Shown: piece by piece, positions 785 through 22,321 of the stretch
Numbering within the stretch: position 1 is the first letter of the stretch
Layout: the number at the start of each line of letters is the position of its first letter
Assembly (NCBI GenBank): GCA_041651575.1
Contig: JBAZJB010000001.1
Coordinates: forward strand, 742,450 to 766,449
Reading direction: 5' to 3'
Source: Candidatus Nanoarchaeia archaeon
GTDB taxonomy: Archaea; Nanobdellota; Nanobdellia; SCGC-AAA011-G17; JAFCDX01
DNA length: 24,000 bases
The notes under the pieces: generated by a model
The model's database searches: none
The model's input: the letters and a program-made list of their open reading frames with translations, nothing else
Told to the model about the DNA's origin: nothing
Translations under genes and position numbers: made by a program

Positions 785-835
785 CGTATTAAATAATATA
801 ATTAGTTTATAAAAGTTATTATAACTATTTTAAAA

Positions 836-1360: not shown

Positions 1361-1361
1361 T

Positions 1362-1529: not shown

Positions 1530-1530
1530 T

Positions 1531-1944: not shown

Positions 1945-1981
1945 ATTAATTTAGAAAGATATAACCCCTTTAAAAAGGTTT

Positions 1982-2623: not shown

Positions 2624-2637
2624 AAATTTTTGTAAGT

Positions 2638-2647
2638 TTAAAGCTTT
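2638..2647. promoter_or_regulatory. 10-bp perfect palindrome TAAAGCTTTA, copy 1, overlapping the TATA box of the minus-strand wHTH gene
   Basis: Read directly from the sequence. TAAAGCTTTA is its own reverse complement. It overlaps CTTTATATAA (2643..2652), which lies about 27 nt upstream of the ATG at 2623. Confidence 0.4.
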
Positions 2648-2709
2648 ATATAATTTTCTTTAATAAAAAGAAGCTTGAAATGAGCTCTAAATAGTGTTAA
2701 GAAGTCTCG

Positions 2710-2719
2710 TAAAGCTTTA
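2710..2719. promoter_or_regulatory. 10-bp perfect palindrome TAAAGCTTTA, copy 2, about 30 nt upstream of the TATA box of the 2797 gene
   Basis: Identical 10-mer, 72 bp from copy 1, in the same 173-bp divergent intergenic region. Confidence 0.4.
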
Positions 2720-2741
2720 AATTTTTTGAAAAGAAAGTTTC

Positions 2742-2749
2742 TTTATATA
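2742..2749 (+). promoter_or_regulatory. TATA box (TTTATATA) for the 2797 gene, which also has a GGAGG Shine-Dalgarno at 2786..2790
   Basis: The TATA lies about 50 nt upstream of the ATG, and GGAGG lies 6 nt before the ATG. This is one of the few leadered genes in the window. Confidence 0.45.
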
Positions 2750-2796
2750 TAAGGTTATTAATCTAATATTAATAAAAATTTTGATGGAGGCAATAA

Positions 2797-3600: not shown

Positions 3601-3606
3601 ATTTAC

Positions 3607-3626
3607 TTTTTTTCTTTTTATTTTTT
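3607..3626 (+). terminator. oligo-T tract (T7-C-T5-A-T6), a likely archaeal intrinsic terminator
   Basis: T runs begin 7 nt after the stop at 3598..3600. Archaeal RNA polymerase terminates at oligo-T stretches. Confidence 0.45.
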
Positions 3627-3663
3627 ATATCGAAAGATTTTTAAATAGAGTATCTATTACATA

Positions 3664-5076
3664 GTGATAAAAATGGCAGAACAAGACAATAATAATAAAA
3701 GTAACAGTATACTTTATTCTTCAGAGAACCCTATCATTGATATTCTTAAACAATTATCTGAGGTTGGAACTAATAGAGAAAAATTAGCGGTTTTAGAAGA
3801 TAGACTTACAACCTATCCTGTAGAAGATAAAATTGGAAGAGAAAGATTAGAAACCTATAAAATGGATTTGGTATCTGATATAGAACAAGCAGAAGTTGAG
3901 GATAATATAAAAAAACTTAAACGTATAAGAAAAAAATCGGCTGAAAGTTATAATTTTCAACATGTTCATCCTTCAATTATTAATTCTTATGAAGAATATA
4001 GGAAGGCACATACTTTTTCTATGCAGGGAGATAGTTTAGATCAATTACCTATAGAAGAAGCTGATAACTTATTACATTTTTTTATGATAAATGATAATAA
4101 ATTTTTTGAATCTGTAATTGAAAAGTATGTTGGGGCTGTTTCTGAAGATATAAAGTCAGTTAAATTATTAAAAAAAATATCTGAACAATCTTTAACAGAC
4201 GCTTTAGCTACAAAAGAAATTTTTGAAGTTTTATCCTTTAAAGAATTAACTCCGGATATGTTTCCTTGGCCAAATGGAGAGCAATTTAAAAAATTAAATG
4301 AAGAAAATTTAGAGAGATTAAGGGGGCTAATTAAAAAAGGATTAGAAGTGTCTTCACATTATTTATACTTATTAAATAATTTAAATGAAAAAAAAGCTAT
4401 AGAAAAAATAAAAGAAAATGATTCTCAAAAAATAACTTCTTTACCTCAATCTATCGTATTTGATCAACATAAAAGATTTTATGAAGGTATAAATAGAGTA
4501 AATAATTTTTGTTTAGACCTTTTAAGTGGAAAAGAAGATAGTACATCTAATTCAAATTTAGAGAGAATTTTAAAGTTAGAAAATTTTATAGATGTTTGTG
4601 AACCTTATCTTAATCTTTTATTAAAACAAGAAAAATATGGGGATGCTACTCTTATAGGGGCAATTTCTTTTTATAAACAAAATAATGTAGTTAAATTAAT
4701 AGAAGAAACTAAATCTAAAATTAGAGAAGCAACAACCCACATACAAATAAATAAAATAAAACAAATTTATACTCCCTATTATGATAAAAATTCAAGGCCC
4801 TATCTGTCTTTTTTAATAGAAAAATACCAATCTAAATATTTAAAAATATTGGGTGAAGTAAAGATAGATTATTCTAAATTAGATCCTATTATAGACCAAG
4901 TTTCTTTTAAACTTTTATACGCTTTCCATATGGGAGATAAAAAACTTTATGACGAAGTAGAAGATATTGTACATAGTACTCCAATACCAGGAAAACTAAA
5001 AATAAATGGAAATGATATAACTTTTAATTTTTTATTTTTGGATTTAATAAGAGGATTTAAACCTTCTTCCAAATAA
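3664..5076 (+). CDS. hypothetical cytoplasmic protein (470 aa, helical, no recognised motif)
   Basis: Long uninterrupted ORF. The track start is GTG 3664, and an alternative ATG lies at 3673. TATA-like TTTTAAATA is at 3638..3646. The 3' end overlaps the convergent cysS by 20 nt. Confidence 0.6.
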   Translation: MIKMAEQDNNNKSNSILYSSENPIIDILKQLSEVGTNREKLAVLEDRLTTYPVEDKIGRERLETYKMDLVSDIEQAEVEDNIKKLKRIRKKSAESYNFQHVHPSIINSYEEYRKAHTFSMQGDSLDQLPIEEADNLLHFFMINDNKFFESVIEKYVGAVSEDIKSVKLLKKISEQSLTDALATKEIFEVLSFKELTPDMFPWPNGEQFKKLNEENLERLRGLIKKGLEVSSHYLYLLNNLNEKKAIEKIKENDSQKITSLPQSIVFDQHKRFYEGINRVNNFCLDLLSGKEDSTSNSNLERILKLENFIDVCEPYLNLLLKQEKYGDATLIGAISFYKQNNVVKLIEETKSKIREATTHIQINKIKQIYTPYYDKNSRPYLSFLIEKYQSKYLKILGEVKIDYSKLDPIIDQVSFKLLYAFHMGDKKLYDEVEDIVHSTPIPGKLKINGNDITFNFLFLDLIRGFKPSSK

Positions 5077-6445
5077 TTCCTTTTTTAGTATCTTCAAGAA
5101 CAAAACCCTTTTCTTTTAATTTATTTCTAATTTCATCAGCCTTTTTCCAGTCTTTTTCTTTTCTATATTTTTCTCTTTTATCCATTAATTCTTTAATCTC
5201 TTTTGGAATAGCTTCTTTTTTAGAAATTAAATTTAAACCAAGAACTTGATCAAATTCATTTAATGTTTCTAAGATTTCTTTTACTTCTTTTTTACTTGGG
5301 TCTAATTTGTTTACTTCATTAATAAAACTAAATATAGAACCAAGTGCATTAGCAATATTTAAATCATCATCTAATGATTCTTCAAATTCTTTTTTAACAT
5401 TTTTTATCAAGCTAGAAACTTTTTTACTATCTTTATCTGATTTTACAAAATTTAACCTATTTATAAATTCATTAAGTCTTTTTAGCGAGTTTCTAGCAGA
5501 ATCAAGTCCTTCAAATGTAAAATTAAATGGAATTCTATAATGTGTGCTTAATAAAGAATATCTTATTTCTCTTCCAGAATACCCTTTTGCAAGAACATCT
5601 CTTAATGTATAAAAATTACCTAAAGATTTGGACATTTTTTTACCATCAACTAAAATAAATTCATTATGCAACCAATAATTTACAAATTTCTTTCTAGTTG
5701 CACATTCTGATTGAGCAATTTCATTTTCGTGATGAGGAAATATTAAATCAATTCCACCTGTATGAATATCAAAGGTTTCTCCAAGATATTTCATAGCCAT
5801 TGCAGAACATTCTATATGCCATCCAGGTCTTCCTTTACCAATTTCAGTTTCCCAAAAAACATCTCCATCTAATTTATCATAGAATTTCCATAAACAAAAA
5901 TCTTGAACATTTTCTTTATCATATTCATCTTTTTTAACACGTTCAGACGCTCCTGCTTCTAAATCATCAAACTTTAAATGAGCTAATTTTCCATATTCTT
6001 TATCTTTAGAAATTTTAAAATAAATTCCGTCATCTGTTTTGTAAGCATAACCTTTATTTAATAATTTTTTAATTATAGAAACCATTTCTTTGATATGTTC
6101 TGTAGCTCTTGGATATTTGAAAGATTCTTTAATATTTAAAGTTTTAATGTCTTCAAAGAATGCTTTTTCATATTTAGAAGTAAATTGTTTCAAAGATAAT
6201 TTTTCTTTTTGTGAATCTCTTATGGTTTTATCATCAACATCTGTTACATTAGTAATATGTTTAATTTTATATCCTTTATATTCTAAATATCTATGTAATA
6301 AATCTGCAAATACAAAAGCTCTAAAATTACCTATATGTCCATAATTATAAACAGTTAATCCACAAGAATATATTCCAACGTTTTTATTTTTAATTGGTTT
6401 AAATTCCTCTTTTTTTCTTGTTAAGGTATTGAATAGTTTTATCAT
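5057..6445 (-). CDS. cysS: cysteinyl-tRNA synthetase
   Basis: Class I synthetase with a HIGH-type motif (GHIGNFRAF), KMSKS (GKKMSKSLGNF) and CysRS-typical blocks (YSCGLTVYNYGHIGN, WHIECSAM, DIHTGGIDLIFPHHENE). Confidence 0.95.
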   Translation of the reverse strand: MIKLFNTLTRKKEEFKPIKNKNVGIYSCGLTVYNYGHIGNFRAFVFADLLHRYLEYKGYKIKHITNVTDVDDKTIRDSQKEKLSLKQFTSKYEKAFFEDIKTLNIKESFKYPRATEHIKEMVSIIKKLLNKGYAYKTDDGIYFKISKDKEYGKLAHLKFDDLEAGASERVKKDEYDKENVQDFCLWKFYDKLDGDVFWETEIGKGRPGWHIECSAMAMKYLGETFDIHTGGIDLIFPHHENEIAQSECATRKKFVNYWLHNEFILVDGKKMSKSLGNFYTLRDVLAKGYSGREIRYSLLSTHYRIPFNFTFEGLDSARNSLKRLNEFINRLNFVKSDKDSKKVSSLIKNVKKEFEESLDDDLNIANALGSIFSFINEVNKLDPSKKEVKEILETLNEFDQVLGLNLISKKEAIPKEIKELMDKREKYRKEKDWKKADEIRNKLKEKGFVLEDTKKGIIWKKV

Positions 6446-6479: not shown

Positions 6480-6992
6480 TTATTCTATTGTTACTGTTAA
6501 AGTTTGACTATAATACATGTTAGATTGACTTTTTGCATAAGTTTCTAAAGAGTACATATATGTTTCTCCAGGTATTGCATTTTTAGGTACTTTAACATTA
6601 ACTACAATTGTTGCATAAGCTCCTGCTTCTATTGGTTGAGATACTGTAGGAACTTCTATCCATTTTGGATCGCTTTTTCCATCTGCAGATTTAACTTTTA
6701 GATAAAATTCATCGTCCCTACCGAGAATATTTTTAATACCTACATACATTCTTTGAGAAGTTTTTGGTTGCATTACTGTATTTGAACCAAGAATGTACAT
6801 TTTTGTTGTTCCAGTTGTCATATACGCTCTTATTTGTTCATCTGCACTTTCAAAAGTTTGTTTTGTAATATCATTTATTTTATCAAACATTCCTCTTATA
6901 AACATTAATCCTAAACTTAACAAAGTAACTCCAAGAATAATAACTATTATGGTAGTCATAGAAAGTTCAATCGCACCCTTTTTTGATTTCAT
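6480..6992 (-). CDS. archaeal type IV pilin-like protein (class III signal peptide)
   Basis: The N-terminus MKSKKG|AIELSMTTIIVIILGVTLLSLGLMF has basic residues, then Gly, then a small residue and a long hydrophobic helix. This is the prepilin-peptidase (class III) signal pattern of archaeal pilins and archaellins. The rest looks beta-rich. Confidence 0.6.
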   Translation of the reverse strand: MKSKKGAIELSMTTIIVIILGVTLLSLGLMFIRGMFDKINDITKQTFESADEQIRAYMTTGTTKMYILGSNTVMQPKTSQRMYVGIKNILGRDDEFYLKVKSADGKSDPKWIEVPTVSQPIEAGAYATIVVNVKVPKNAIPGETYMYSLETYAKSQSNMYYSQTLTVTIE

Positions 6993-7054
6993 ATAAATTA
7001 AGAGTTTAAAATTATATTTAAAGGTTTCTATAACTTCAAAATTAAAAAAATAAG

Positions 7055-7154: not shown

Positions 7155-7166
7155 ATATTTAAATAT
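7155..7166. promoter_or_regulatory. perfectly palindromic TATA element ATATTTAAATAT between the divergent tRNA-Phe and valS genes
   Basis: The 12-mer is its own reverse complement. Its centre lies about 32 nt from the tRNA 5' end (7128) and about 27 nt from the valS ATG (7188). Confidence 0.4.
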
Positions 7167-7187
7167 TTCTAATTGGAGATAATTAAT

Positions 7188-9530
7188 ATGCCAAGTCAAA
7201 ATTATGATTTTAAAGCTTCAGAAAAGAAGTGGAAGGAATATTGGGAAAAGAATAAGGTTTACAAATTTGATATAAATTCAAAAAAACCCATTTATTCTAT
7301 TGATACCCCTCCTCCATATATTTCTGGAAAAATGCATATAGGTCATGCTTTTTCATATTCACAACAAGATTTTATAGCAAGATACCAAAGAATGTCTGGA
7401 AAAAATGTATTTTACCCTTTTGGTACAGATGATAATGGATTACCTACAGAAAGATTTGTAGAAAAAATGAATAATGTTAAAAGTATAAATATGGATAGGG
7501 CAACATTTATAGAACTTTGTTTAAAAACACTCAAGGAAACTACTTTTGGATTTATACAAGATTGGAAAGATATTGCAATGAGCGCAGATTTTAATATATA
7601 TTATTCTACTATAGATAAACCTACTCAAAAAGTTTCTCAAAAATCTTTTATTGATTTATTTAAACAAGGAGATATTTATGTTCAAGAATTTCCAACTTTG
7701 TGGTGTGTAGATTGTAGAACTACAGTTGCACAAGCAGAATTGGAAGATAAACATTTAGAAAGTTTATTTTCTACATTGAAATTTAAAGCAAATGGAAAAG
7801 ATTTGTTGATAGCAACAACAAGACCAGAATTATTACCTGCCTGTGTTGCAGTATTTGTAAATCCTACTGATGATAGATATAAAAATTTAGTTGGTAAGAA
7901 AGCAAAAGTTCCTTTATTTAATTTTGAAGTTCCTATAATTGCAGATGAATCAGCTTCTATAGAAAAAGGAACAGGAGTATTGATGGTTTGTTCTTATGGA
8001 GATAAATATGATGCACAAGCAATTACAAAACATAAACTTTCACCTAAAATAATTTTCAATCAAGATGGGACTTTAAACTTCGGAAATTATAAAGGACTTA
8101 AAATAAGAGAAGCAAGAAAACAAATTCTTGAAGATTTAAAAAATGCAAATTTAATTACTGAACAAAAACCAATAAGTCATATTGTTAATGTACATGATAG
8201 ATGTGGAACTGAAATTGAATTATTGCCTACAAAACAATGGTTCATAAAAATATTGGATAAAAAGAAAAAATTAATAGAACAAGGTAAGAAAATAAATTGG
8301 TATCCTGAATTTATGTTTAAAAGATATGAAAATTGGGTTCAAGGATTAGAATGGGATTGGTCTATTTCAAGAGATAGACATTTTGGTATTCCTATTCCAG
8401 TTTGGGAATGTGAAAAATGTAAAGAAATTATTTTGCCTTTAGAAAAAGAATTACCTATAGATCCTTTACAAACAAAAAAGAAATGTCCTAAATGTAAACA
8501 AGATGCAAAAGGTGAGGAAAAAGTTTTAGATACTTGGGCAACATCTTCTTTATCTCCACAAATAGCTTCTTCTTTAGTTAATAATAAAGTAAAAATTCCA
8601 TTTTCTTTAAGACCACAAGCTCATGATATAATTAGAACTTGGGCATTTTATACAATAACAAAATCGTTTTTACATGAAAAAGAAATTCCTTGGAAAGATA
8701 TTACTATTTCAGGGTATGTTACAATGGGTGGAGAAAAAATGTCTAAATCTAAAGGCAATATTATTGATCCTAGGCAGGTTTTAGATAAATATGGAACAGA
8801 TGCTTTAAGATTCTGGGCAGCAGGTTCTAAATTAGGAGAAGATTTAGACTATCAAGAAAAAGATTTAGTTACAGGACAGAAATTAATAACAAAATTATGG
8901 AATGCTTCCAAATTCGTTGAAATGCATTTACAAGATTACAAAGAAAAAGAAAATAAAAAGTTAGAAAAGTTTGATGAATGGTTATTAATAAAATTAAATA
9001 ATTTAATTAAAGAATGTACAGAAGAATTTGAAAGTTATTCTTATTCAAAACCAAAACAAAAGTTAGAAAATTTCTTTTGGCATATATTTTGTGATAATTA
9101 TTTAGAAATCGTTAAAGATAGATTATATAATCCAGATAAAAGAGGAAAAGAATCTAGATTATCTGCACAATATACTTTACATAAAACTTTGATTTGTTTA
9201 TTGAAGATGTTAAGTCCAATAACTCCTTTTATTACAGAAGAAATTTATCAAGAAACTTTAAAGAAAAAAGAAAGCATACATTTAACTTCTTGGCCAGAGT
9301 ATGATAAGAAGAATGATAAAAAATTGGAAGAACAAGGAGATTTGGTTTTGGAAATAATTAATGAAGTAAGACAATTCAAAACAAAAAATAATAAATCTAT
9401 GAAAGAGCCAGTTATTATTACAATAGAAAAGAAAAATGAAAAAGTTATAAAAGAATTTTATGATGATTTGAAAGCTGTTACAAGTGCAAAAGATATTAAA
9501 TTCGGAGATAAATTAAAAATAGAATTTTAG
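7188..9530 (+). CDS. valS: valyl-tRNA synthetase (compact form)
   Basis: DTPPPYISGKMHIGHAFSYSQQDFIARYQRMSG...GTDDNGLPTE, WCVDCRTTVAQAELE and KMSKSKGN match archaeal ValRS. I prefer ATG 7188 (MPSQNYDF) to the track's TTG 7173, because of its spacing to the TATA element and a GGAG at 7175..7178. Confidence 0.85.
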   Translation: MPSQNYDFKASEKKWKEYWEKNKVYKFDINSKKPIYSIDTPPPYISGKMHIGHAFSYSQQDFIARYQRMSGKNVFYPFGTDDNGLPTERFVEKMNNVKSINMDRATFIELCLKTLKETTFGFIQDWKDIAMSADFNIYYSTIDKPTQKVSQKSFIDLFKQGDIYVQEFPTLWCVDCRTTVAQAELEDKHLESLFSTLKFKANGKDLLIATTRPELLPACVAVFVNPTDDRYKNLVGKKAKVPLFNFEVPIIADESASIEKGTGVLMVCSYGDKYDAQAITKHKLSPKIIFNQDGTLNFGNYKGLKIREARKQILEDLKNANLITEQKPISHIVNVHDRCGTEIELLPTKQWFIKILDKKKKLIEQGKKINWYPEFMFKRYENWVQGLEWDWSISRDRHFGIPIPVWECEKCKEIILPLEKELPIDPLQTKKKCPKCKQDAKGEEKVLDTWATSSLSPQIASSLVNNKVKIPFSLRPQAHDIIRTWAFYTITKSFLHEKEIPWKDITISGYVTMGGEKMSKSKGNIIDPRQVLDKYGTDALRFWAAGSKLGEDLDYQEKDLVTGQKLITKLWNASKFVEMHLQDYKEKENKKLEKFDEWLLIKLNNLIKECTEEFESYSYSKPKQKLENFFWHIFCDNYLEIVKDRLYNPDKRGKESRLSAQYTLHKTLICLLKMLSPITPFITEEIYQETLKKKESIHLTSWPEYDKKNDKKLEEQGDLVLEIINEVRQFKTKNNKSMKEPVIITIEKKNEKVIKEFYDDLKAVTSAKDIKFGDKLKIEF

Positions 9531-9564
9531 AAAAGTTTATATATATCTATTTTATTTTAACATT

Positions 9565-11496
9565 ATGAAAAAGAGTAATTTGTTGATTTTATTTGTTTTA
9601 ATTTTTTCTTTGGCTTTTATGTCTGCTTGTACTGTTCAATTATCTGGTAAAAATTTACCTAAAATTAATCCTAGTTGTTGTGTTGTTACAGATGTTAATA
9701 ATGGAGGTATTTTAGGTTGCGTTCAAGGTTTTAATTTAAAAAATAGTCAATCAGAATGTTATAATAAATTTTTTTCTTTAGGTAATACACAATGGGCTTC
9801 TGATTACTGTGATAAATTACCTCAATGTCAAGATACTACTTACAGTTGTATGGGTTATGATTACTCCTCAAATATAACTTACCAGTTGGTTAATATGGAG
9901 GGAAGATGTGTAGATAATACTAATTCATATCTATGTTCAAATGGAACAATTTCTTTAATTTCGACTAACGGATGCGTAACTCCTCAAGGATGTTTAGATT
10001 CAGATGATGGAATAAATATTTATGTGAAAGCAAAAGGAGGACTCTTGATAAATGGAACTTGGGGTTATAATGAAGAAATGTGTTACGATTCAAATTTTGG
10101 TATTTATAATGATGCTCCAGAAGGATGTACAGATTATACAACTGGTCATGGAAATGGTTTATGTGTACTAGAGATGTTTTGTGATGCCCTTAATCAACAA
10201 CAAACTAGAATTTACAAATGTCCAAATGGTTGTTCAAATGGGGCATGTTTGTCCGTAACTAATGAAACATGTACAGATACCGATGGAGGAATTGATTATT
10301 TAAATTTTGGAGTTATTTCTAATAATACTATGGTTGGAACATTTTCAGATAGTTGTATTAGTTCTTTAGATGGGGACGGTAGTAATGTATATGAAGGAGA
10401 TAGAATTGTAGAATATTTTTGTGGTAATGGCGGAGAATGGTCTTTTAGTTTGGTTACTTGTGAATATGGTTGTAGAAATGGAACATGCGTAAAACAATAT
10501 GATCCCTCTTTACAAAAGTATTATGTAAATCCTAGCTCTAATTTATGTACTGATACAGATAGCTCAATTAATTATTATGGTTACTTTACTAAAGGAAATA
10601 TTACTCATTATAATCCTTATAATAAAGTTAATGAATCCTTTGGAGATGGTTGTATGAATGATCCAATTGAGCAGAAGAATGTTTATGAAGGGGATTATTT
10701 AGGAGAAGCTAATTGTAGGGGAAGTTTTTATGATAATTTCATTAATTATAGTGCATTAAGTGTAGATATTTTCAAATGTCCAAATGGATGTGTAAATGGA
10801 GCATGTTTTTTAACCAATTCTAAAGTAATATCTTGTGATAGATTAATTTATCATCCAGAACAGAATGATAATGAACCGACAATTTTAGATAGAATTAATT
10901 TCTGTAAAAATAATGGTTTATATTATGCAGGAATTATGTTAGAAGGAGATCAATTCCATTGGTATGGGAATTGTTTAGATGATCCAAACAATGGGTGGGG
11001 TTATATAACTGATTTAAGAATTTGTAATTATAAATCTTGTGTAGATTCAGATAATGGAATAAATTATAGTATAAAAGGAGTTGTACAAGGATATGCAAAT
11101 AGTCCTTCGATACCTTTTAATCTTACTGATACTTGTTTACTTGAAGATGGCTCAAATGTATTAGCTGGTCCAAATATTGTGGAAGGTATTTGCGAAGATG
11201 GTTTCTGGGCATTTGGAAATATTTATACTTGTCCAAATGGATGTTATGATGGAGTTTGTATTACTCAATGCCAGTATACTTTAACTAACTGTCCTTCTTG
11301 GTCATTATGTTCTTCATCGGGCGGTCAATATTGTGCTGCAACAGGATGTAATGTTTTATTGATGAGAAGATGTTCTCCAAGCACATGTCCACAACAGTAT
11401 ACAGAAACAACTTGTCCTTCATGGACAGCTTGTGATCAAACTGGATATAAATATTGTGCAGTCGTAGGATGTTCTTCTTTAAGTAAAAAGTGTTAA
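9565..11496 (+). CDS. cysteine-rich secreted or lipid-anchored protein with four six-cysteine CxD(S/T)DxG...CxxGCxxGxC modules and a C-terminal tandem CPSW repeat
   Basis: Signal peptide with a lipobox-like FMSA|C (MKKSNLLILFVLIFSLAFMSAC). About 60 Cys in 643 aa. Modules are detailed in the next two features. Many N-x-S/T sequons. Confidence 0.85.
   Translation: MKKSNLLILFVLIFSLAFMSACTVQLSGKNLPKINPSCCVVTDVNNGGILGCVQGFNLKNSQSECYNKFFSLGNTQWASDYCDKLPQCQDTTYSCMGYDYSSNITYQLVNMEGRCVDNTNSYLCSNGTISLISTNGCVTPQGCLDSDDGINIYVKAKGGLLINGTWGYNEEMCYDSNFGIYNDAPEGCTDYTTGHGNGLCVLEMFCDALNQQQTRIYKCPNGCSNGACLSVTNETCTDTDGGIDYLNFGVISNNTMVGTFSDSCISSLDGDGSNVYEGDRIVEYFCGNGGEWSFSLVTCEYGCRNGTCVKQYDPSLQKYYVNPSSNLCTDTDSSINYYGYFTKGNITHYNPYNKVNESFGDGCMNDPIEQKNVYEGDYLGEANCRGSFYDNFINYSALSVDIFKCPNGCVNGACFLTNSKVISCDRLIYHPEQNDNEPTILDRINFCKNNGLYYAGIMLEGDQFHWYGNCLDDPNNGWGYITDLRICNYKSCVDSDNGINYSIKGVVQGYANSPSIPFNLTDTCLLEDGSNVLAGPNIVEGICEDGFWAFGNIYTCPNGCYDGVCITQCQYTLTNCPSWSLCSSSGGQYCAATGCNVLLMRRCSPSTCPQQYTETTCPSWTACDQTGYKYCAVVGCSSLSKKC
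9991..11259 (+). repeat. four divergent protein-level copies of the six-cysteine module (nt 9991..10248, 10270..10488, 10546..10803, 11038..11259)
   Basis: Module starts are CLDSDDGINIY, CTDTDGGIDY, CTDTDSSINY and CVDSDNGINY. Module ends are CPNGCSNGAC, CEYGCRNGTC, CPNGCVNGAC and CPNGCYDGVC. Coordinates were checked against TGT codons at 9991, 10270, 10546 and 11038. Confidence 0.8.
11269..11493 (+). repeat. two tandem ~36-aa cysteine repeats (CQYTLTNCPSWSLCSSSGGQYCAATGCNVLLMRRC and CPQQYTETTCPSWTACDQTGYKYCAVVGCSSLSKKC)
   Basis: Direct reading of the C-terminal 75 aa shows the shared pattern T-x-CPSW-x-x-C-x(4-5)-YCA-x-x-GC-x(6)-C. Confidence 0.75.
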
Positions 11497-11580
11497 TTTA
11501 TTTTTATTTATTTGAATGATATTTAATATAAAACTTTATTCGTTTTGTACAACTTTTATAATAATTATTAAACAATTAAC

Positions 11581-11588
11581 TTTAAATA
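11581..11588 (+). promoter_or_regulatory. TATA box TTTAAATA for the aRF1 gene (leaderless spacing)
   Basis: The centre lies about 25 nt upstream of ATG 11610, and no SD sequence lies between them. Confidence 0.45.
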
Positions 11589-11609
11589 ATATTCTCAATT
11601 TTAATTACT

Positions 11610-12701
11610 ATGAATATCAAAGAAAGATACAAACTAAAAAAAACCTTAAAAGAATTAGAAGGAATTAGGGGAAGACATACAGAATTGGTTTCTGTTTATG
11701 TTCCTGCAGGTTATGAATTAGTTAAAATTTTAAATCATTTATTCCAAGAGCAAGGAACTGCTTCTAATATTAAAGATAAAACAACAAGAATGCATGTTAT
11801 AGATTCTATTGAAAGAATGATACAACATTTAAGATTATTTAAAAGAACTCCAATAAATGGATTAGCTGTTTTTGCAGGTAATGCTTCTGAAAAAGAAAAT
11901 AAAGTCGATATTAAAGTTTGGTCTATAGAACCTCCTGAACCAATTAATATGCGAGTATATAGGTGTGATCAAACTTTTTTATTAGAACCTTTAATAGATA
12001 TGATTAATATTAAAGAAACATTTGGTTTAATAGTTCTTGATAAAAGAGAAGCCAATGTTGGATTATTAAGAGGAACAAATATTAAAAATTTAGTTACAAT
12101 GACTTCAGGTGTTCCTGGAAAAGTAAAAACTGGAGGTTTCTCACAGCAAAGATACTCAAGATTAAGAGATGAGGCAGCTCACGAATTTTATAAAAGAGTT
12201 GCAGAATTTGCAAATAAAGAATTTTTTAACAAGCCAGACTTAAAAGGAGTATTGATTGGAGGACCAGGAACAACTAAGCAAGAATTTGTAGATGGAAATT
12301 ATTTATTAACTGAAATAAGAAAAAAAATAATTGCGGTAAAAGATTTATCTTATACTGGAGAATCTGGTTTGCATGATTTAGTAGAAAGAAGTCACGAAGT
12401 TCTTGCAGAAGAAGAAATAACTGTGGAAAAAGAAATTATGCAAAAGTTTTTTGAAAAATTAGCAAGAGAAGAAGAAAAAACAACTTATGGATTAGTTGAA
12501 ACTAAAAAAGCATTAGCTTTAGGTGCCGTAGATACTTTACTCTTATCTGAAAATTTACCTGATAAACAGATAGAAGAACTTGAAGAAGAAGCAGAAAAAT
12601 ATAAAACAGAAGTAAAGATGATTTCTACTGAATCAAGAGAAGGAGTACAATTAAAAGACATTGGTGGAGTAGCAGCTATACTCAGATATCCTATAAAATA
12701 A
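11610..12701 (+). CDS. prf1: peptide chain release factor aRF1 homologue, compact (363 aa), with GGF in place of GGQ
   Basis: Matches the a/eRF1 pattern: GRHTELVSVYVP, TASNIKDKTTR (NIKS-type loop), YRCDQTF (YxCxxxF) and PGKVKTGGFSQQRYSRLRDEAAHEFYKRVAE (GGQ region). Codons 12132..12140 read GGA GGT TTC. Confidence 0.85.
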   Translation: MNIKERYKLKKTLKELEGIRGRHTELVSVYVPAGYELVKILNHLFQEQGTASNIKDKTTRMHVIDSIERMIQHLRLFKRTPINGLAVFAGNASEKENKVDIKVWSIEPPEPINMRVYRCDQTFLLEPLIDMINIKETFGLIVLDKREANVGLLRGTNIKNLVTMTSGVPGKVKTGGFSQQRYSRLRDEAAHEFYKRVAEFANKEFFNKPDLKGVLIGGPGTTKQEFVDGNYLLTEIRKKIIAVKDLSYTGESGLHDLVERSHEVLAEEEITVEKEIMQKFFEKLAREEEKTTYGLVETKKALALGAVDTLLLSENLPDKQIEELEEEAEKYKTEVKMISTESREGVQLKDIGGVAAILRYPIK

Positions 12702-12741: not shown

Positions 12742-13134
12742 ATGGATAACAGAGACAAAGTGGTGATTGGTTCTGCGATATTAGTTGTTTTAGCAGTATT
12801 AATTGTTTTAAATAATACTGTAAATTATAATACTGGTCAAGCTATGAGAGCAGGTAATTGTTATGATACAGATAGTGGAGATAATAAATATGCAAGAGGA
12901 ACCCTTTCAGGCCATATATACCCTTCACAAGAACAAATTAATGAAAGGGACTATTGTGTATATTATGAAGATGATCCAGGAAAAAAAGATGTTTTAAAAG
13001 AATATTATTGTTTAAAAGATGTTTCTGAAAATTGTTTAGATAATGATCCAGATACAGATTGCGATAAATCTGCATATTCATCTAAATTTTTGATTTGTGA
13101 ATATGGTTGCAAGAACGGAGCTTGCGAGAGATAA
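12742..13134 (+). CDS. small secreted six-cysteine-module protein, paralogue 1 (130 aa, two extra Cys)
   Basis: Signal or anchor MDNRDKVVIGSAILVVLAVLIVL...NTG|QA. Module motifs are CYDTDSGDNKYARGTLSG...RDYC...LKEYYC...ICEYGCKNGAC. Confidence 0.85.
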   Translation: MDNRDKVVIGSAILVVLAVLIVLNNTVNYNTGQAMRAGNCYDTDSGDNKYARGTLSGHIYPSQEQINERDYCVYYEDDPGKKDVLKEYYCLKDVSENCLDNDPDTDCDKSAYSSKFLICEYGCKNGACER

Positions 13135-13152
13135 TTTTATTTTAATTTAAAA

Positions 13153-13503
13153 ATGAAACTATTTGAAGGTTTTACAAGAAAATTAGTAATAGTTTTTGTA
13201 ATATTGTCTTTATATCTTTTATTTTTTTCAACAGGAATTTTTGATATGGTTACAGGATATAATCTTAAAGTAGCACATTGTGAAGATACAGATAAAGGTT
13301 CTATTTATGTAAAAGGAACTATTTCTGGGCAGACAGATATTAATGCGGCTATTGAACCAAAAACAGATTATTGTTCTTTAGAAGATAAAGAAATTTTAAA
13401 AGAATTTCAATGTGATCTTTTAACACCAAATAATTGGAGATCTTTTCCAATAAATTGTACTAATTATGGTATGAGATGTGTAGATGGTGCTTGTATAAAT
13501 TAG
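13153..13503 (+). CDS. small secreted six-cysteine-module protein, paralogue 2 (116 aa)
   Basis: Hydrophobic N-terminus LVIVFVILSLYLLFF...VTG|YN. Module motifs are CEDTDKGSIYVKGTISG...TDYC...LKEFQC...CTNYGMRCVDGAC. Confidence 0.8.
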   Translation: MKLFEGFTRKLVIVFVILSLYLLFFSTGIFDMVTGYNLKVAHCEDTDKGSIYVKGTISGQTDINAAIEPKTDYCSLEDKEILKEFQCDLLTPNNWRSFPINCTNYGMRCVDGACIN

Positions 13504-13508
13504 AAATA

Positions 13509-13515
13509 TTTATAA
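13509..13515 (+). promoter_or_regulatory. TATA box (TTTATAA) for the 13538 gene
   Basis: It lies within GAAATATTTATAAG, about 26 nt upstream of the ATG. Confidence 0.4.
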
Positions 13516-13529
13516 GTACCTTTCTTTAT

Positions 13530-13628
13530 ATTAAATTATGGATACAAAAGACAAAACTATAATCGGATTAGTAGTTTTGCTCGTTTTAGCAGTACTTTTG
13601 GCATCTGGTATTTTAACTACAGGAAAAG
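13530..13628 (+). repeat. 99-bp block 100% identical to 13925..14023 (8 nt upstream of the ATG plus codons 1-30 and one further nt)
   Basis: Base-by-base comparison at a 395-nt offset. Identity starts at 13530/13925 and ends at 13628/14023. Confidence 0.9.
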
Positions 13629-13858
13629 CTATCAAAGTTTCTTGTGAAGATACAGATGGCGATAGTATTTATTTGCAAGGAGCTGTAAGTGGAACTGATT
13701 CTGGAGGAAGTGCTTTTGGACCTTATGCGGATTTTTGTTCTGTAGAAGATTCAAATATTTTAGTTGAATACACTTGTGATCAATTCCAAGCAGGTGGGTA
13801 TAAGAGAGAAACTAAATCTTGCGGAAAAGGCTGCGAAAACGGAGCATGTAAACAATAA
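13538..13858 (+). CDS. small secreted six-cysteine-module protein, paralogue 3 (106 aa)
   Basis: MDTKDKTIIGLVVLLVLAVLLASGILTTG|K. Module motifs are CEDTDGDSIYLQGAVSG...ADFC...LVEYTC...CGKGCENGAC. Confidence 0.85.
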   Translation: MDTKDKTIIGLVVLLVLAVLLASGILTTGKAIKVSCEDTDGDSIYLQGAVSGTDSGGSAFGPYADFCSVEDSNILVEYTCDQFQAGGYKRETKSCGKGCENGACKQ

Positions 13859-13865
13859 ATTAAAA

Positions 13866-13886
13866 TTTTTTTATTTTTCTTTTTTT
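13866..13886 (+). terminator. oligo-T tract (T7-A-T5-C-T7) after paralogue 3
   Basis: T runs begin 8 nt after stop 13856..13858. Confidence 0.45.
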
Positions 13887-13905
13887 AATTTAATTTAGAA
13901 ACATT

Positions 13906-13913
13906 TAAATATA
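13906..13913 (+). promoter_or_regulatory. TATA box TTTAAATA for the 13933 gene
   Basis: It lies within GAAACATTTAAATATAG, and its centre is about 24 nt upstream of the ATG. Confidence 0.45.
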
Positions 13914-13924
13914 GCTTATTCTTA

Positions 13925-14023
13925 ATTAAATTATGGATACAAAAGACAAAACTATAATCGGATTAGTAGTTTTGCTCGTTTTAGCAGTACTTTTGGCATC
14001 TGGTATTTTAACTACAGGAAAAG
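13925..14023 (+). repeat. second copy of the 99-bp identical block (see 13530..13628)
   Basis: Same comparison as for 13530..13628. Confidence 0.9.
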
Positions 14024-14259
14024 TAACTAACGCATTTTCTTGTTCAGATACAGATGTTGGAAGTAGATTTATACAAGGAACAATAACAGGATCTGTAGGT
14101 GGAAATTCTTTTGAACTTACAGATTACTGTAATGCGGATGGAACTTTAAAAGAATATTCCTGTGGTATTAATAGATGGTATTATGGGGATACAGACGAAG
14201 AAGGTCAACCTGCATTGATTTGTCCAAATGGCTGCGAAAACGGAGCATGCCTACAATAA
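13933..14259 (+). CDS. small secreted six-cysteine-module protein, paralogue 4 (108 aa)
   Basis: The first 30 aa are identical to paralogue 3. Module motifs are CSDTDVGSRFIQGTITG...TDYC...LKEYSC...ICPNGCENGAC. Confidence 0.85.
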   Translation: MDTKDKTIIGLVVLLVLAVLLASGILTTGKVTNAFSCSDTDVGSRFIQGTITGSVGGNSFELTDYCNADGTLKEYSCGINRWYYGDTDEEGQPALICPNGCENGACLQ

Positions 14260-14266
14260 ATTAAAA

Positions 14267-14287
14267 TTTTTATTTTTTATTTTTTTT
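14267..14287 (+). terminator. oligo-T tract (T5-A-T6-A-T8) after paralogue 4
   Basis: T runs begin shortly after stop 14257..14259 and are homologous to the tract at 13866..13886. Confidence 0.45.
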
Positions 14288-14303
14288 AATTTATATAGAA
14301 ATA

Positions 14304-14311
14304 TTTATAAA
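14304..14311 (+). promoter_or_regulatory. TATA box (TTTATAAA) for the 14333/14730 gene pair
   Basis: It lies within GAAATATTTATAAATA, about 25 nt upstream of ATG 14333. The 14730 gene starts 1 nt after the 14333 gene's stop. Confidence 0.4.
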
Positions 14312-14332
14312 TAATTAGATATTTAAATAAAT

Positions 14333-14728
14333 ATGAAAATGAAGAAAAAAGAGGATGTTAGAGATTATATTATTTTAGTTTTAATCATTTCTGTTTGCGC
14401 ATTTTTTATATTGGGTTTTATAAATTTTACAACAGGAAATGTTCTTTTAAAAAGAAGTTGTAATGATACAGATGGAGGATATAATCCTTTTGTAAAAGGT
14501 ACAGTGACCGCAGTAAGCAAAGGACGTTATGCTTTTGAAGAAAAAACAGATTATTGTGTATATATGCAAGTTGGACCAAATGAAGAAAATAAATATCCTG
14601 CAGTAAAAGAATATTTCTGTGGCTCAGATCCAGAAAGTACCAAATCTCAAGATTTTACTTATAGCCAATATAATGATAAATTAGTTATTTGTAATAATGG
14701 TTGTAAAGACGGAGCCTGCATAGAATAA
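14333..14728 (+). CDS. small secreted six-cysteine-module protein, paralogue 5 (131 aa)
   Basis: Signal or anchor YIILVLIISVCAFFILGFINFTTG|N. Module motifs are CNDTDGGYNPFVKGTVT...TDYC...VKEYFC...ICNNGCKDGAC. Confidence 0.85.
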   Translation: MKMKKKEDVRDYIILVLIISVCAFFILGFINFTTGNVLLKRSCNDTDGGYNPFVKGTVTAVSKGRYAFEEKTDYCVYMQVGPNEENKYPAVKEYFCGSDPESTKSQDFTYSQYNDKLVICNNGCKDGACIE

Positions 14729-14729
14729 A

Positions 14730-15098
14730 ATGGCAAAAAAATTCAACAAAGAAATTTTATTATCGGCTTTATTATTAATAACTTTAGTTCTTTTATTAGT
14801 TTTTGGAGTAACTCAATTTACTACAACAAGTAATGTTCTTGTTGGTTGCGATAAATCTTGTGAAGATAATGATCAAGGAAGTATTAATTTAAAAGGAACT
14901 GTTTCAGTAAGAGGAGATGATTGTAATTTGCGTGAAAGAACAGATTATTGTATAGATGAATATAGATTAAAAGAATATAATTGTGATTCTACCAATTCTT
15001 TAAATTTCCAAACAATGATAGTTTATTGTGAAGAAAAATGTTTTAATGGTGTTTGTTTAACTGAAAAACAGACTTTAGAATACCAAGGTTTAGAGTAA
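14730..15098 (+). CDS. small secreted six-cysteine-module protein, paralogue 6 (122 aa, divergent, extra Cys)
   Basis: Signal or anchor ILLSALLLITLVLLLVFGV. Module motifs are CEDNDQGSINLKGTVS...TDYC...LKEYNC...YCEEKCFNGVC, followed by a short C-terminal tail. Confidence 0.8.
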   Translation: MAKKFNKEILLSALLLITLVLLLVFGVTQFTTTSNVLVGCDKSCEDNDQGSINLKGTVSVRGDDCNLRERTDYCIDEYRLKEYNCDSTNSLNFQTMIVYCEEKCFNGVCLTEKQTLEYQGLE

Positions 15099-15137
15099 TA
15101 TAGTTAGTTTTTTATACTTATTTCTAATAAAAAACCT

Positions 15138-15617
15138 ATGGAAAATAGGAATAAAATAGAATCTGTATTATTTATATTAGGAAGACCTTTATCTGTACAG
15201 GAAATAGCTGGGTTAACAGGTATAGGTTCTCATGGATTAATTGCTCAAAAATTACTTGAATTAAAAGATGAATATACTAAAAGACAAGGACCTTTAGAAT
15301 TAGTAAATGAAACAGAAAAATGGAAGCTTTGTTTAAAAAAAGAATATTTATATCTAAGTGAAAAATTGTTATCGGATTCTGAATTAGATTTTCCTACACA
15401 AGAAACTTTGGCAGTAGTTGCATATAAACAACCTGTTTTACAAGCAGAAATTATAAAAATAAGGGGAAATAAAGCATACGATCATATTCATTTCTTAAAA
15501 GAAAATAATTTTATTACTTCAGAAAAATCAGGGAGAACAAGATTATTAAAATTAACTCAAAAATTCTTTGATTATTTTGATGTAGTAGATAATAATCTAA
15601 AATTAAAAAATGAATAA
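15138..15617 (+). CDS. scpB: segregation and condensation protein B (ScpB)-like, short form
   Basis: IESVLFILGRPLSVQEIAGLTG...TQETLAVVAYKQPVLQAEIIKIRG...SGRTRLLKLTQKFFDYF is the double winged-helix ScpB pattern. Confidence 0.75.
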   Translation: MENRNKIESVLFILGRPLSVQEIAGLTGIGSHGLIAQKLLELKDEYTKRQGPLELVNETEKWKLCLKKEYLYLSEKLLSDSELDFPTQETLAVVAYKQPVLQAEIIKIRGNKAYDHIHFLKENNFITSEKSGRTRLLKLTQKFFDYFDVVDNNLKLKNE

Positions 15618-20356: not shown

Positions 20357-22321
20357 GTGGTACATATTAAAAAAGATAGAGAATTGAGTGTTTTTATATT
20401 TGCAATATTTGTATTCTCATTCTTGGTTTTTATGTTAATGAAACCTTCTATTACTGGGAACGTGGTAGCAATTCCTGAGATGATAGATATTAATACCGGA
20501 AGTTCTTTATCTGATATAAATAATGTTTCTCTTAGTTTTAATGCAGGAGAGTCTTTTTCTTGTGATCATATATTGGTATTAAATATAAGTGATTCTTCAG
20601 ACCAACAAATTTATTCCGATGATGTTACTTTAGCAGTTTTTGTTTCTGCTGCAAAACCTACTAGTAGTTGTACTGGTGATCCAAGTACATACACTCCTGG
20701 TGGAACAAGTCAAATTTTAAATTCTAGTATTTCTATTTTTTCTGGTTTAACTTCTATTAATTTTAATACTGCAGGAACATATACTATTAGTTTGAATTTA
20801 TCTGATGCAATCGGATTACAAAAAAATTTTGGTGAATCTAGTTTTACAGTTTCTGCTCCAGTTGTTTCTAATCCTCCAGAAATAACAGATGTTTCTTTTA
20901 CTAACTTAACTGGTTCAAGTAAATTTAGAGTAAATGGTTATGTAAATTGTTCTTCTATTGTTAAAGATGATAGTAGTACTATTAATGTTAAATATATTTT
21001 GTGGAATAAAACAAGTTTTTCTAATCAATTTAAAACAGGAGATATTTCTTGTTCTGGGGATTCTTGGGTAAGTGGAAAATCTTGTAATGTTTCTGTACAA
21101 ATAACCGAAAGTCATATTGGAGATTGGATATGTACTATTAGTGCTAATGATACTGTTGGAGGAACTTATGCAAATTCAAGTGTTATAGAAATGTTAAATT
21201 CTCCTCCTATATTAAAAGATACTTTTGATAATGATTCTTGGAGGAAAAATACCAATGAAAGTTTAGATTTGGATGACTATTTTTCAGATCCAGATGGACA
21301 AACATTAATTTATAATTTTACAGGAAATAATTCTGTTTCTATTTTTATAGATTCTGATAAAGAAGTAAAATTCGTTCCAAAAAAAGATTGGGTAGGAACT
21401 AATAATATAAGATTTAGTGCTAATGATAGTTTAGGATTGTACGTTGTCGGTAATTTATTTTTAATAAATGTTACAAATTCTACTTCATCTTGTTCTGAAA
21501 CTTGGAATTGTACAAATTGGACTTCTTGTGTTAACAATGTTAGAACAAGAACTTGTGTTGATGAGGAAAATTGTGGAACTTTAACAGGAAGACCTGCAAT
21601 TAATGAATCTTGTACTACTTCTACTTGTGGAATAAACGATGGATGTTCTATATCTTGCGTTGGAGGAGATTCAGATTGTTCTTGCTCTTTAGAAAATGGT
21701 TATGTTTGTGGAATTAATCAAACTTGTAGTAGTTCTACTTTATTACATTCAGGATCAGGAATCTGCTGTTCTATTCCTTGTACTTCTACTGTTTTAGCAG
21801 GAACAACTACAAATGTTAATTTAGGTACTAATAACAATCTTGAAAATAAATCAAATAAGGTACTTATTGGAGTAAGTTTAATTTCTGGAATAGTTTTCAT
21901 TATGATTTTAGTAATTGTAATTTATACTTATGTACAAAGAAAAAGAGCAGTTGTTGAAGAATCAAGTCCGATAGTTCAACCAAAAGAAGTTGCTCCTCAA
22001 ACTTTTGTAAAAGAAATAAAACAAGAACCTACAATAAAAGTAAGGCCTGTTAATGTTGAAAAAATGAAAGAATATATTCAAAAATCTTTAAATGCAAAAG
22101 TTCCTTTGAAGAATATAAAAGAGGGATTAGAAAGAGCAGGATGGCCACAATCTGATATTGAAAGAGAATTAAGTTTAGCAAGATTATCAAACTATATTCA
22201 AGTTAAAATAAATCAAGGTATTCCAAAAGAACAAATTATAAGTTCTCTAAGAATAAAAGGGTGGAAAGAGGAACAAATTAAGGAAGCTTTGAAAGAAACT
22301 AGAATAAAACCTTTATTTTGA
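20357..22321 (+). CDS. large type I membrane surface protein: signal, three Ig/cadherin-like beta domains, Cys-rich stalk, TM helix, cytoplasmic tail with two GW helical repeats
   Basis: Signal is VFIFAIFVFSFLVFMLM...ITG|NVV. Domain linkers are SNPPEITDVSF and NSPPILKDTF. A cadherin-like motif LDLDDYFSDPDGQTLIYNF is present. The Cys-rich region (aa 379..475) reads SCSETWNCTNWTSCVNNVRTRTCVDEENCGT... The TM helix is VLIGVSLISGIVFIMILVIVIYTYV. About 20 N-x-S/T sequons. The GTG start is uncertain. Confidence 0.8.
   Translation: MVHIKKDRELSVFIFAIFVFSFLVFMLMKPSITGNVVAIPEMIDINTGSSLSDINNVSLSFNAGESFSCDHILVLNISDSSDQQIYSDDVTLAVFVSAAKPTSSCTGDPSTYTPGGTSQILNSSISIFSGLTSINFNTAGTYTISLNLSDAIGLQKNFGESSFTVSAPVVSNPPEITDVSFTNLTGSSKFRVNGYVNCSSIVKDDSSTINVKYILWNKTSFSNQFKTGDISCSGDSWVSGKSCNVSVQITESHIGDWICTISANDTVGGTYANSSVIEMLNSPPILKDTFDNDSWRKNTNESLDLDDYFSDPDGQTLIYNFTGNNSVSIFIDSDKEVKFVPKKDWVGTNNIRFSANDSLGLYVVGNLFLINVTNSTSSCSETWNCTNWTSCVNNVRTRTCVDEENCGTLTGRPAINESCTTSTCGINDGCSISCVGGDSDCSCSLENGYVCGINQTCSSSTLLHSGSGICCSIPCTSTVLAGTTTNVNLGTNNNLENKSNKVLIGVSLISGIVFIMILVIVIYTYVQRKRAVVEESSPIVQPKEVAPQTFVKEIKQEPTIKVRPVNVEKMKEYIQKSLNAKVPLKNIKEGLERAGWPQSDIERELSLARLSNYIQVKINQGIPKEQIISSLRIKGWKEEQIKEALKETRIKPLF
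22064..22291 (+). repeat. two tandem ~37-40-aa cytoplasmic repeats (xxxYIQxxxNxxxPxxxIxxxLxxxGWxxxxIxxxL)
   Basis: MKEYIQKSLNAKVPLKNIKEGLERAGWPQSDIEREL and LSNYIQVKINQGIPKEQIISSLRIKGWKEEQIKEAL, read directly from the translation. Confidence 0.7.

Follow-up and report, generated by a model that had tools for sequence, protein, structure and literature searches.

We analyzed a stretch of 24,000 nucleotides (called the window below) from a metagenome-assembled genome of Candidatus Nanoarchaeia, a DPANN lineage, in which six genes for small, predicted surface proteins lie in tandem. The third and fourth of these genes, P3 and P4, begin with an identical block of 99 nucleotides (nt), have strongly diverged centers, and become similar again at their 3' ends. 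We regard it as probable that this pattern reflects segmental gene conversion between old tandem duplicates, i.e., the concerted evolution of a promoter and anchor leader.

The identical 5' block of P3 and P4

Positions 13530-13628 and 13925-14023 are identical at 99/99 nucleotides, and the identity is not extendable by a single base on either side. In both open reading frames (ORFs), the block begins 8 nt before the ATG and runs through codons 1-30 to the first base of codon 31. An earlier interpretation of the window, made from its letters alone (the sequence-only reading), had reported this identity and its extent, and every coordinate was confirmed. In the alignment of P3 with P4, which has 466 columns and 145 differences, the block is the longest identical run; a run of this length was reached in 0 of 100,000 permutations, and an analytic estimate of its chance occurrence is ~1e-14. 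Breakpoint testing, which the earlier reading had proposed, agrees with this extent: an unconstrained two-breakpoint maximum chi-square scan placed the breakpoints at exactly 13530 and 13628.

The encoded peptide does not account for the identity. Even if the two peptides are required to be identical, all 30 codons would coincide with a probability of 2e-9 under the window's own codon usage, and all 29 codons for degenerate amino acids are the same in the two leaders. Of 23 synonymous sites in the block, 0 differ, versus ~22 of the 46 sites elsewhere in the gene (Fisher p = 1.8e-5). By the Nei-Gojobori method, synonymous divergence (dS) is 0 for the block; outside it, the gene has a dS of 0.74 and a nonsynonymous divergence (dN) of 0.51. 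The 99-nt identity is far beyond what chance or peptide constraint would produce.

Another conceivable cause is selection on the nucleotides of the block themselves, e.g., as an initiation element of leaderless mRNAs or as an antisense or regulatory RNA. The block does stand at the very start of transcripts that are probably leaderless, and its identity to the leader of the syntenic relative L001 (GCA_028716945.1) is 96% (95/99 for either window copy), which is somewhat above the values for neighboring genes (84-91%). However, orthologous leaders differ. The L001 leader has 4 synonymous-site differences from that of the window, and the leader codons of the two corresponding genes in L004, a Logan contig, are identical to those of P3 and P4 in just 18/28 and 12/22 cases (10/28 codons differ from the second L004 gene). 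Because the leaders of L001 and L004 differ at synonymous sites and codons, the leader nucleotide sequence appears not to be constrained in itself. Moreover, the identical blocks at a second locus (see below) differ by 17-18% between genomes. These between-genome differences largely refute nucleotide-level constraint, to which we assign a minute probability.

Conflicting histories of adjacent segments

L001 is syntenic with the window from the gene for aRF1 through the array to that for ScpB, at a dS of 0.33-0.66, and has one gene (X) where the window has two; L002 and L003 carry the same arrangement. The segments of X differ in their affinities. Its 40 nt upstream match those of P4 at 37/40 positions and those of P3 at 29/40, the latter being at background level, while its leader is equally close to both. 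Its center is nearer to P3, both in the N-terminal half (79% identity to P3, 71% to P4) and in the C-terminal half (62% and 46%), and its tail and downstream region are closest to P4 (88-90%). L001 therefore has a P4-type promoter, leader and 3' flank around a P3-type center. An alternative central segment between the same flanks had been predicted by the sequence-only reading at the population level, and here such a segment is found in a relative.

Quartet analysis expresses the same conflict in terms of topology. In the center, informative sites group P3 with X and P4 with the fourth taxon by 14:3:2, 17:4:5 and 18:3:6, for three different fourth taxa, and P4 is no nearer P3 than L001 in any segment of the center. 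In the leader, the sole informative sites pair P3 with P4, and X with the fourth taxon, by 2:0:0. Multi-taxon comparison used five homologous genes that have this leader: at leader positions 66 and 72, the window copies share a state unlike that of L001 and the first L004 gene, though at position 72 the second L004 gene has the window's base. Because the segment topologies conflict, the 5' block would have coalesced after the split between the window and L001, and the centers would have separated before it; such conflict between adjacent segments therefore points to segmental gene conversion. If the two leaders had evolved independently since this split, ~4 differences would be expected at the leader's own rate, or ~12 at that of neighboring genes, but 0 are observed, for which we calculate a probability of ~0.02 to 6e-6.

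These topologies also bear on the hypothesis that a whole unit was recently duplicated in tandem and that its center alone then diverged very fast, by positive selection or hypermutation, with no conversion involved. It would fit the raised dN between P3 and P4 (0.51), the confinement of indels to loops, and the fact that conserved center residues use the same codon in 24 of 29 cases. However, the P3 center groups with its L001 orthologue and not with P4, as the quartet counts above indicate, and two genes are already found in L004. The mismatches are biased neither toward adenine nor in any other direction, and no gene for a reverse transcriptase lies nearby. We consider this hypothesis very unlikely.

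The arrangement in L004 consists of a P2-like gene (P2 being the second paralogue of the window's array), followed by two genes in the same order as in the window. The leaders of these two genes are only 79% identical to each other, and their centers pair weakly with X and P3 and with P4, respectively. This suggests, as far as the sequences go, that the presence of two genes dates far back and that, in the absence of conversion, leaders drift apart.

The centers of P3 and P4 are indeed diverged and differ by 6 nt in length, as had been reported: 13629-13828 (200 nt) and 14024-14229 (206 nt) are identical in 115 of 218 columns (~53%). The return of identity was likewise correctly located, at GGCTGCGAAAACGGAGCATG (13829 and 14230) and at CAATAAATTAAAATTTTT. 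The 3' flank, described there as near-identical, is ~88% identical over ~65 nt and is older than the 5' block. The two flanks differ significantly in age, with 0/99 differences in the 5' block versus 8/65 in the 3' block (Fisher p = 5e-4). The 3' flank, being ~12% diverged, is a separate and weaker case than the 5' block.

A comparable pattern recurs at a second locus, at which adjacent paralogues of the same subfamily lie between a zinc-finger gene and a GatB/E-like gene. Such pairs are found in L005, an NCBI metagenome-assembled genome, and in L010 and L011, which come from two separate JGI metagenomes and match each other at 900/900 positions; at this locus, L009 and L012 carry one gene only. 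The identical 5' run is 88 nt in L005 (-41..+47 relative to the start codon) and 89 nt in L010 and L011 (-23..+66). The 5' region is 93-94% identical within a genome versus 67-68% between genomes, and the rest of the gene has the opposite relationship, with 72% between orthologues (second gene to second gene) versus 51-66% within a genome. Judged by these identities, the pairs bear the textbook signature of concerted evolution, which thus recurs independently. Because the boundaries vary and fall inside the hydrophobic helix, the tracts look like those of ordinary homologous recombination, rather than a site-specific junction between leader and mature protein. For this reason, the proposed association of the end of identity with a signal-peptidase site between TTG and K does not generalize: in the other genomes, identity ends within the helix, at +47 and +66. 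What does hold is the view that uniform divergence after duplication is inadequate as an explanation, given the incongruent topologies, the contrast at synonymous sites and this recurrence in other genomes.

Two adjacent genes at 570-5482 of L008, a Woesearchaeota genome, were considered as a further replicate. They encode proteins of ~800 amino acids (aa) with shared N- and C-terminal regions and different middles, one of which includes the six-cysteine module described below. This candidate was rejected, as the ends are only ~70% identical in nucleotides and contain no identical block.

The sequence-only reading had offered two mechanisms: conversion that homogenizes the flanks, or exchange of the mature-domain segment between conserved flanks. 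The first of these is the better supported. Under the second, a recent duplication of the unit would have been followed by the replacement of one center with a diverged allele, taken from a paralogue or from another strain, through recombination in the conserved promoter/leader and 3' flanks. It is true that the flanks of P4 are orthologous to those of the L001 gene (37/40 upstream, 95/99 in the leader and 88-90% in the tail) and that the P4 center is not, that one slot holds different centers in two lineages, and that whole genes are gained or lost in this region between close relatives. On the other hand, one recent duplication does not predict the unequal ages of the two flanks, and L004 already has a P4-like gene in the second position. 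In addition, the replicate pairs are identical at the 5' end only, with boundaries that vary (-41..+47, -23..+66 and, in the window, -8..+91). A search of 5.8 billion proteins also found no close relative of the P4 center, and hence no donor. We therefore consider the replacement of a center to be unlikely.

Because the window derives from a metagenome-assembled genome, it is important to consider that two alleles might have been stitched together in tandem, or that repeats might have been collapsed into a consensus. In L006, which comes from a related sample and is 93% identical to the window, the contig ends 28 nt into the 5' block, which is the expected outcome when a short-k assembly meets a repeat. 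However, the P4 protein occurs on two contigs of different length. One of these was read, an ENA contig (ERZ27247363, k141_170452, 447 kb), and it is identical to window positions 12933-15259 at 2327/2327 bases; we take its k141 name to mean MEGAHIT with k=141, a value above the length of the 99-nt repeat. The sequence that joins the two copies is unique, and the same architecture is present in assemblies from NCBI, JGI (two separate metagenomes) and Logan. The concern about collapse or chimerism, which the sequence-only reading had raised, was thus checked against this base-identical contig, and we regard an artefact as extremely improbable.

Several observations nonetheless weigh against gene conversion as we describe it. 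The leader topology depends on 2 informative sites. The L004 genes are weakly assigned as orthologues of P3 and P4 (9:4:3 and 6:3:4). P4, and not P3, has the promoter that is orthologous to that of the L001 gene (37/40), and because P4 holds this X-type promoter, a simple model requires two extra events, namely a tract that spanned the promoter and a later replacement of positions 13420-13529. The same-codon count at conserved center residues (24/29) is near the expectation from codon bias in an AT-rich genome and is uninformative, so the age of the centers is based on topology and not on dS. Finally, the exact identity of the two block copies was established at the level of assembled metagenomic contigs.

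Under segmental gene conversion, the following sequence of events can be envisaged. An old tandem duplication would have produced P3 and P4, whose centers would have been diverging since before the split from the sequenced relative, with exposed loops of the module diverging quickly. Very recently, non-reciprocal homologous recombination between direct repeats ~395 bp apart would have copied the leader and promoter-proximal segment of one gene over that of the other. The promoter would once have been inside the conversion tract, since P4 holds the X-type promoter. An earlier event of a similar kind would have affected the 3' end and terminator, which are now ~12% diverged. Tracts would survive only in places where sequence similarity still permits recombination between the copies and where homogenization does no harm, i.e., in the promoter, the membrane anchor and the GC-x-NGAC tail. 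RadA-type homologous recombination is presumed as the enzymology; a direction of transfer between P3 and P4 is presumed likewise, as is an advantage, if any, of diverse modules.

The array, its promoters and a six-cysteine module

The window has a GC content of 27% and belongs to a 766-kb contig, on which the genes of interest have locus tags WC413_04545 to 04555. Housekeeping genes in the window include those for class I aminoacyl-tRNA synthetases such as ValRS, for aRF1 (11610-12701) and for ScpB (15138-15617). The six-gene array occupies 12742-15098, between aRF1 and ScpB, with all genes on the + strand. In each of the six proteins, a hydrophobic segment at the N-terminus and a conserved [x]TG motif are joined by a short linker to a single module with six cysteines. 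The features are listed in Table 1.

Table 1. Coordinates of features in the window, with dN/dS values relative to L001
Feature	Position	Strand	Remarks
Motif AGAAANNTTTAWAW sites	7016-7029(-), 7157-7170(-), 9529-9542, 13502-13515, 13897-13910, 14297-14310		BRE/TATA-like
Gene for 643-aa lipobox-like protein	9565..11496	+	N-terminus ...FMSAC; four tandem six-cysteine modules of the same domain family
Paralogue 1	12742..13134	+	130 aa; N-terminal hydrophobic helix and one six-cysteine module; orthologue in L001 and L006
Paralogue 2	13153..13503	+	116 aa; dN/dS 0.48
Low-identity island	13420..13529	+	3' end of paralogue 2 and P3 promoter region; left edge of identical block
P3 promoter-like motif AGAAATATTTATAA	13502..13515	+	BRE/TATA-like; starts 36 nt before the P3 ATG
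Identical 5' block, copy 1	13530..13628	+	-8 to +91; codons 1-30 encode MDTKDKTIIGLVVLLVLAVLLASGILTTGK
Gene P3	13538..13858	+	106 aa; WC413_04550; center orthologous to the single L001 gene
Diverged center 1	13629..13828	+	Linker and six-cysteine module up to the fourth Cys
3' block, copy 1	13829..13893	+	Codons for GC-x-NGAC, the stop codon and terminator-like oligo-T runs; identity to copy 2 ~88%
P4 promoter-like motif AGAAACATTTAAAT	13897..13910	+	BRE/TATA-like; starts 36 nt before the P4 ATG
Identical 5' block, copy 2	13925..14023	+	
Gene P4	13933..14259	+	108 aa; WC413_04555; all six Cys and motif residues retained
Diverged center 2	14024..14229	+	
3' block, copy 2	14230..14294	+	Nearer to the 3' flank of the single L001 gene (88-90%) than to copy 1
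Paralogue 5	14333..14728	+	131 aa; dN/dS 0.14
Paralogue 6	14730..15098	+	122 aa; dN/dS 0.21

The motif AGAAANNTTTAWAW occurs 6 times in the window, where 0.48 occurrences are expected, and it begins exactly 36 nt before the ATG at P3, P4, paralogue 5 and the gene for the 643-aa protein. Given the general architecture of archaeal promoters, it resembles a transcription factor B recognition element (BRE) followed by a TATA box, and would probably be the promoter of leaderless or near-leaderless mRNAs. Runs of T follow the stop codon of each array gene. Because P3 and P4 each have an ATG, a full ORF, a BRE/TATA-like motif and T-runs, they appear to be complete transcription units and not silent cassettes. 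The sequence-only reading had called the pattern cassette-like and had suggested a search for silent copies with the same flanks; however, both copies are complete genes with promoter-like motifs, and no silent copies, recombinase or inverted sites were seen. A protein search of the 766-kb contig found no further genes with the P3/P4 leader, although non-coding cassettes elsewhere in the genome are outside its reach, and a degenerate DNA pattern of the leader had no match in JGI metagenome contigs. We also considered whether promoters had been swapped, such that the P3 promoter would be that of the second L004 gene; this idea was dropped, as the match of 29/40 lies within the background of 24-32.

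Immediately to the left of the first block copy, positions 13420-13529 form an island of low identity. In a sliding comparison, identity to L001 is 42-65% in the island, versus mostly 70-90% in the left flank and at least 85-100% in the right flank. L006 shares the island at 97.6%, and no donor was detected in the sequences compared. By these comparisons, the island appears to be a separate replaced segment, and it marks another mosaic breakpoint within the array. Paralogue 2 has a C-terminus, CTNYGMRCVDGACIN, that is unlike that of every relative compared except L006 (the others being L001, L003, L004, P0014, P0019 and P0020).

Genes have also been gained or lost around the array. The single gene of L001 could have resulted from deletion of a second gene between conserved 3' ends. 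L001 has an additional 117-aa gene, apparently cytoplasmic, at 7322-7675 between the last array gene and ScpB, which is missing from the window; we considered this gene as a member of the family and rejected it. Given this and other gains and losses, the interval from aRF1 to ScpB is a hotspot of gene flux. Upstream of this interval, the gene for the 643-aa protein is missing in both close relatives, L001 and L006 (93% identical), in which the ValRS stop codon abuts the aRF1 ATG. No flanking repeats were seen around this gene. The gene itself occupies ~2.1 kb (9533-11609) between ValRS and aRF1, and beyond its four modules the protein has two more Cys-rich repeats toward the C-terminus.

The module has ~70 residues and six invariant cysteines, in the pattern C-x-D-[ST]-D ... 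D-[YF]-C ... E-[YF]-x-C ... C-x(2,5)-[GKR]-C-x-[ND]-G-x-C. With a profile built from ten modules of the window (9988-11265 and 12856-15095), we searched 1.84 billion proteins and retrieved 6,561 cluster representatives with E <= 1e-3, of which 2,059 had E <= 1e-10. Many of these proteins are giant, with up to 25 matched stretches. All members that bear a name from their source are called 'hypothetical protein', and the four that name an organism are from Woesearchaeota or Nanoarchaeia. Domains that accompany the module are extracellular: dockerin, S-layer C, CARDB and Big_7 (Ig-like). No curated family for the module was found, in that there was no significant match to Pfam, NCBIfam or PDB profiles, nor a Foldseek match to a solved structure, and a literature search on the module or on cysteine-rich surface proteins of DPANN archaea found nothing relevant. 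We propose the module as a candidate new domain family.

AlphaFold predicts a beta-rich fold for the P3 module, with a predicted local distance difference test score (pLDDT) of 96.5. For P4, pLDDT is 75-90 outside one loop, at residues 81-90, which is predicted with low confidence and is found in P4 only. The full-length P4 model consists of a helix at residues 3-24, a flexible linker and the folded module. This model suggests that the leader is a 22-residue membrane anchor at least as much as a cleaved signal, and, on sequence grounds, cleavage between ASG and I would be equally as plausible as cleavage between TTG and K. The P3/P4 leader has no cysteine, and there is no lipobox. The leader of paralogue 1 (MDNRDKVVIG...) is related to that of P3 and P4 and lacks recent conversion. 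We would expect the P3 and P4 proteins to be displayed on the surface, with the disulfide-rich module on the outside of the cell.

A conserved [ILVF]-T-G motif lies just after the N-terminal hydrophobic helix, at 13619-13627 and at the equivalent sites of all six paralogues, and it recurs in many predicted surface proteins of these archaea. Further examples are in a protein encoded at 20357-22321 (SITGNVV) and in the L008 pair at 570-5482 (ITGKVV and LTGKVT). The motif may be a processing or sorting signal, and we know of no description of it.

The dN/dS ratios against L001 for the mature regions are 0.39 for P3, 0.46 for paralogue 2, and 0.14-0.20 for paralogues 5 and 6, and the ratio for paralogue 1 is 0.22. 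Those of housekeeping neighbors are 0.02-0.11. By these ratios, the module evolves fast, but they do not demonstrate positive selection. With their shared export or anchor leaders, such fast-evolving surface modules are obvious candidates for proteins that contact the host, in organisms with a presumed host-attached life.

A more far-reaching idea is that the promoter/anchor and GC-x-NGAC/terminator flanks serve as recombination handles, by which surface modules of these episymbiotic archaea are reassorted, duplicated and deleted within and between strains. This idea fits several observations: the same slot has different centers in the window and L001, gene number is one to two at both loci, identical 5' tracts recur, and the module is built into giant multi-repeat surface proteins. 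If it is true, the locus would be the archaeal equivalent of the variable-surface-protein loci of bacteria, adapted to attaching to hosts or evading them. We offer it as a speculation that is rather unlikely to be correct.

Two other predicted surface proteins are encoded in the window. A 170-aa protein (6480-6992, - strand) has a class III (type IV pilin-like) signal, in which MKSKKG is followed by AIELSMTTIIVIILG, and a weak match to 'choice-of-anchor T'; it is a probable archaeal pilin-like surface protein. In the 654-aa protein encoded at 20357-22321, the ITG motif belongs to an N-terminal anchor, which is accompanied by a region rich in Cys, a transmembrane segment near the C-terminus and a predicted cytoplasmic tail; the sole family match of this protein is a weak one to tandem-95-repeat.

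Relation to known systems

The mechanism that we favor is a familiar evolutionary process and not a new one, and no programmed cassette system is involved. To our knowledge, recombination within DPANN genomes is almost undocumented, and the locus offers a clean and replicated case, from a Nanoarchaeia lineage, of what is probably segmental gene conversion in genes for surface proteins. In addition, it brings to attention a six-cysteine module that is widespread and unannotated. For annotation practice, the repeat explains contig breaks such as that in L006, and clustering by leader will mis-group genes of the P3/P4 type.

In the variable lipoprotein arrays of Mycoplasma (vsp, vlp, vpma, vsa), near-identical 5' regions and signal peptides are joined to divergent external domains. 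These arrays switch by site-specific inversion, with a recombinase and inverted sites, or by slippage in promoter homopolymers. In contrast, the genes of the present array all run in the same direction, and neither an inversion nor a slippage system was seen. No recombinase was recognized among the ORFs read in the 24-kb window, only some of which were scanned against family libraries, and inverted repeats were confined to low-complexity AT-rich matches.

Silent-cassette systems, such as pilE/pilS of Neisseria and vlsE/vls of Borrelia, resemble P3 and P4 in that segmental, non-reciprocal recombination is bounded by conserved flanks. However, they have one expression site and promoterless, partial cassettes. 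A diversity-generating retroelement is not indicated either: no reverse transcriptase is present in the window, and mismatches in the centers extend over all base pairs and are accompanied by indels.

Conotoxins and other venom-peptide superfamilies combine a conserved signal with a hypervariable, disulfide-framed mature peptide, in which the cysteines are preserved, and they grow by duplication (PMC3823881). Unlike P3 and P4, these are eukaryotic genes with introns, and their mechanism is debated. For P3 and P4, conversion is favored over conservation because the block includes upstream non-coding bases and appears younger than speciation.

The closest analogue is the Erp family of Borrelia burgdorferi (OspE/F-related), which is marked by an 'upstream homology box' (UHB). 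As in P3 and P4, the promoter, the leader and the first mature residues are conserved, and the exposed parts are diverse and recombine (PMC10016077). However, Erp proteins are bacterial lipoproteins encoded on cp32 prophage plasmids, at allelic positions on different replicons, while P3 and P4 are chromosomal tandem neighbors in an archaeon, with no lipobox, no phage context and an unrelated fold.

In terms of process, there are precedents in prokaryotic paralogues that undergo concerted evolution by gene conversion, e.g., tuf and rRNA operons, and, in archaea, mtrA, mtmB/C and histones (PMC6053082, PMC4632066). As with P3 and P4, within-genome paralogues are closer to each other than between-genome orthologues, which has been attributed to recurrent homologous conversion (PMC6053082, PMC4632066). 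A phylogenomic survey of recurrent concerted evolution listed seven archaeal cases, all of them in methanogens and all affecting whole housekeeping or enzyme genes (PMC6053082). In contrast to these, the probable conversion of P3 and P4 is segmental, being limited to the promoter and anchor, and it concerns fast-evolving surface-protein genes in a DPANN archaeon.

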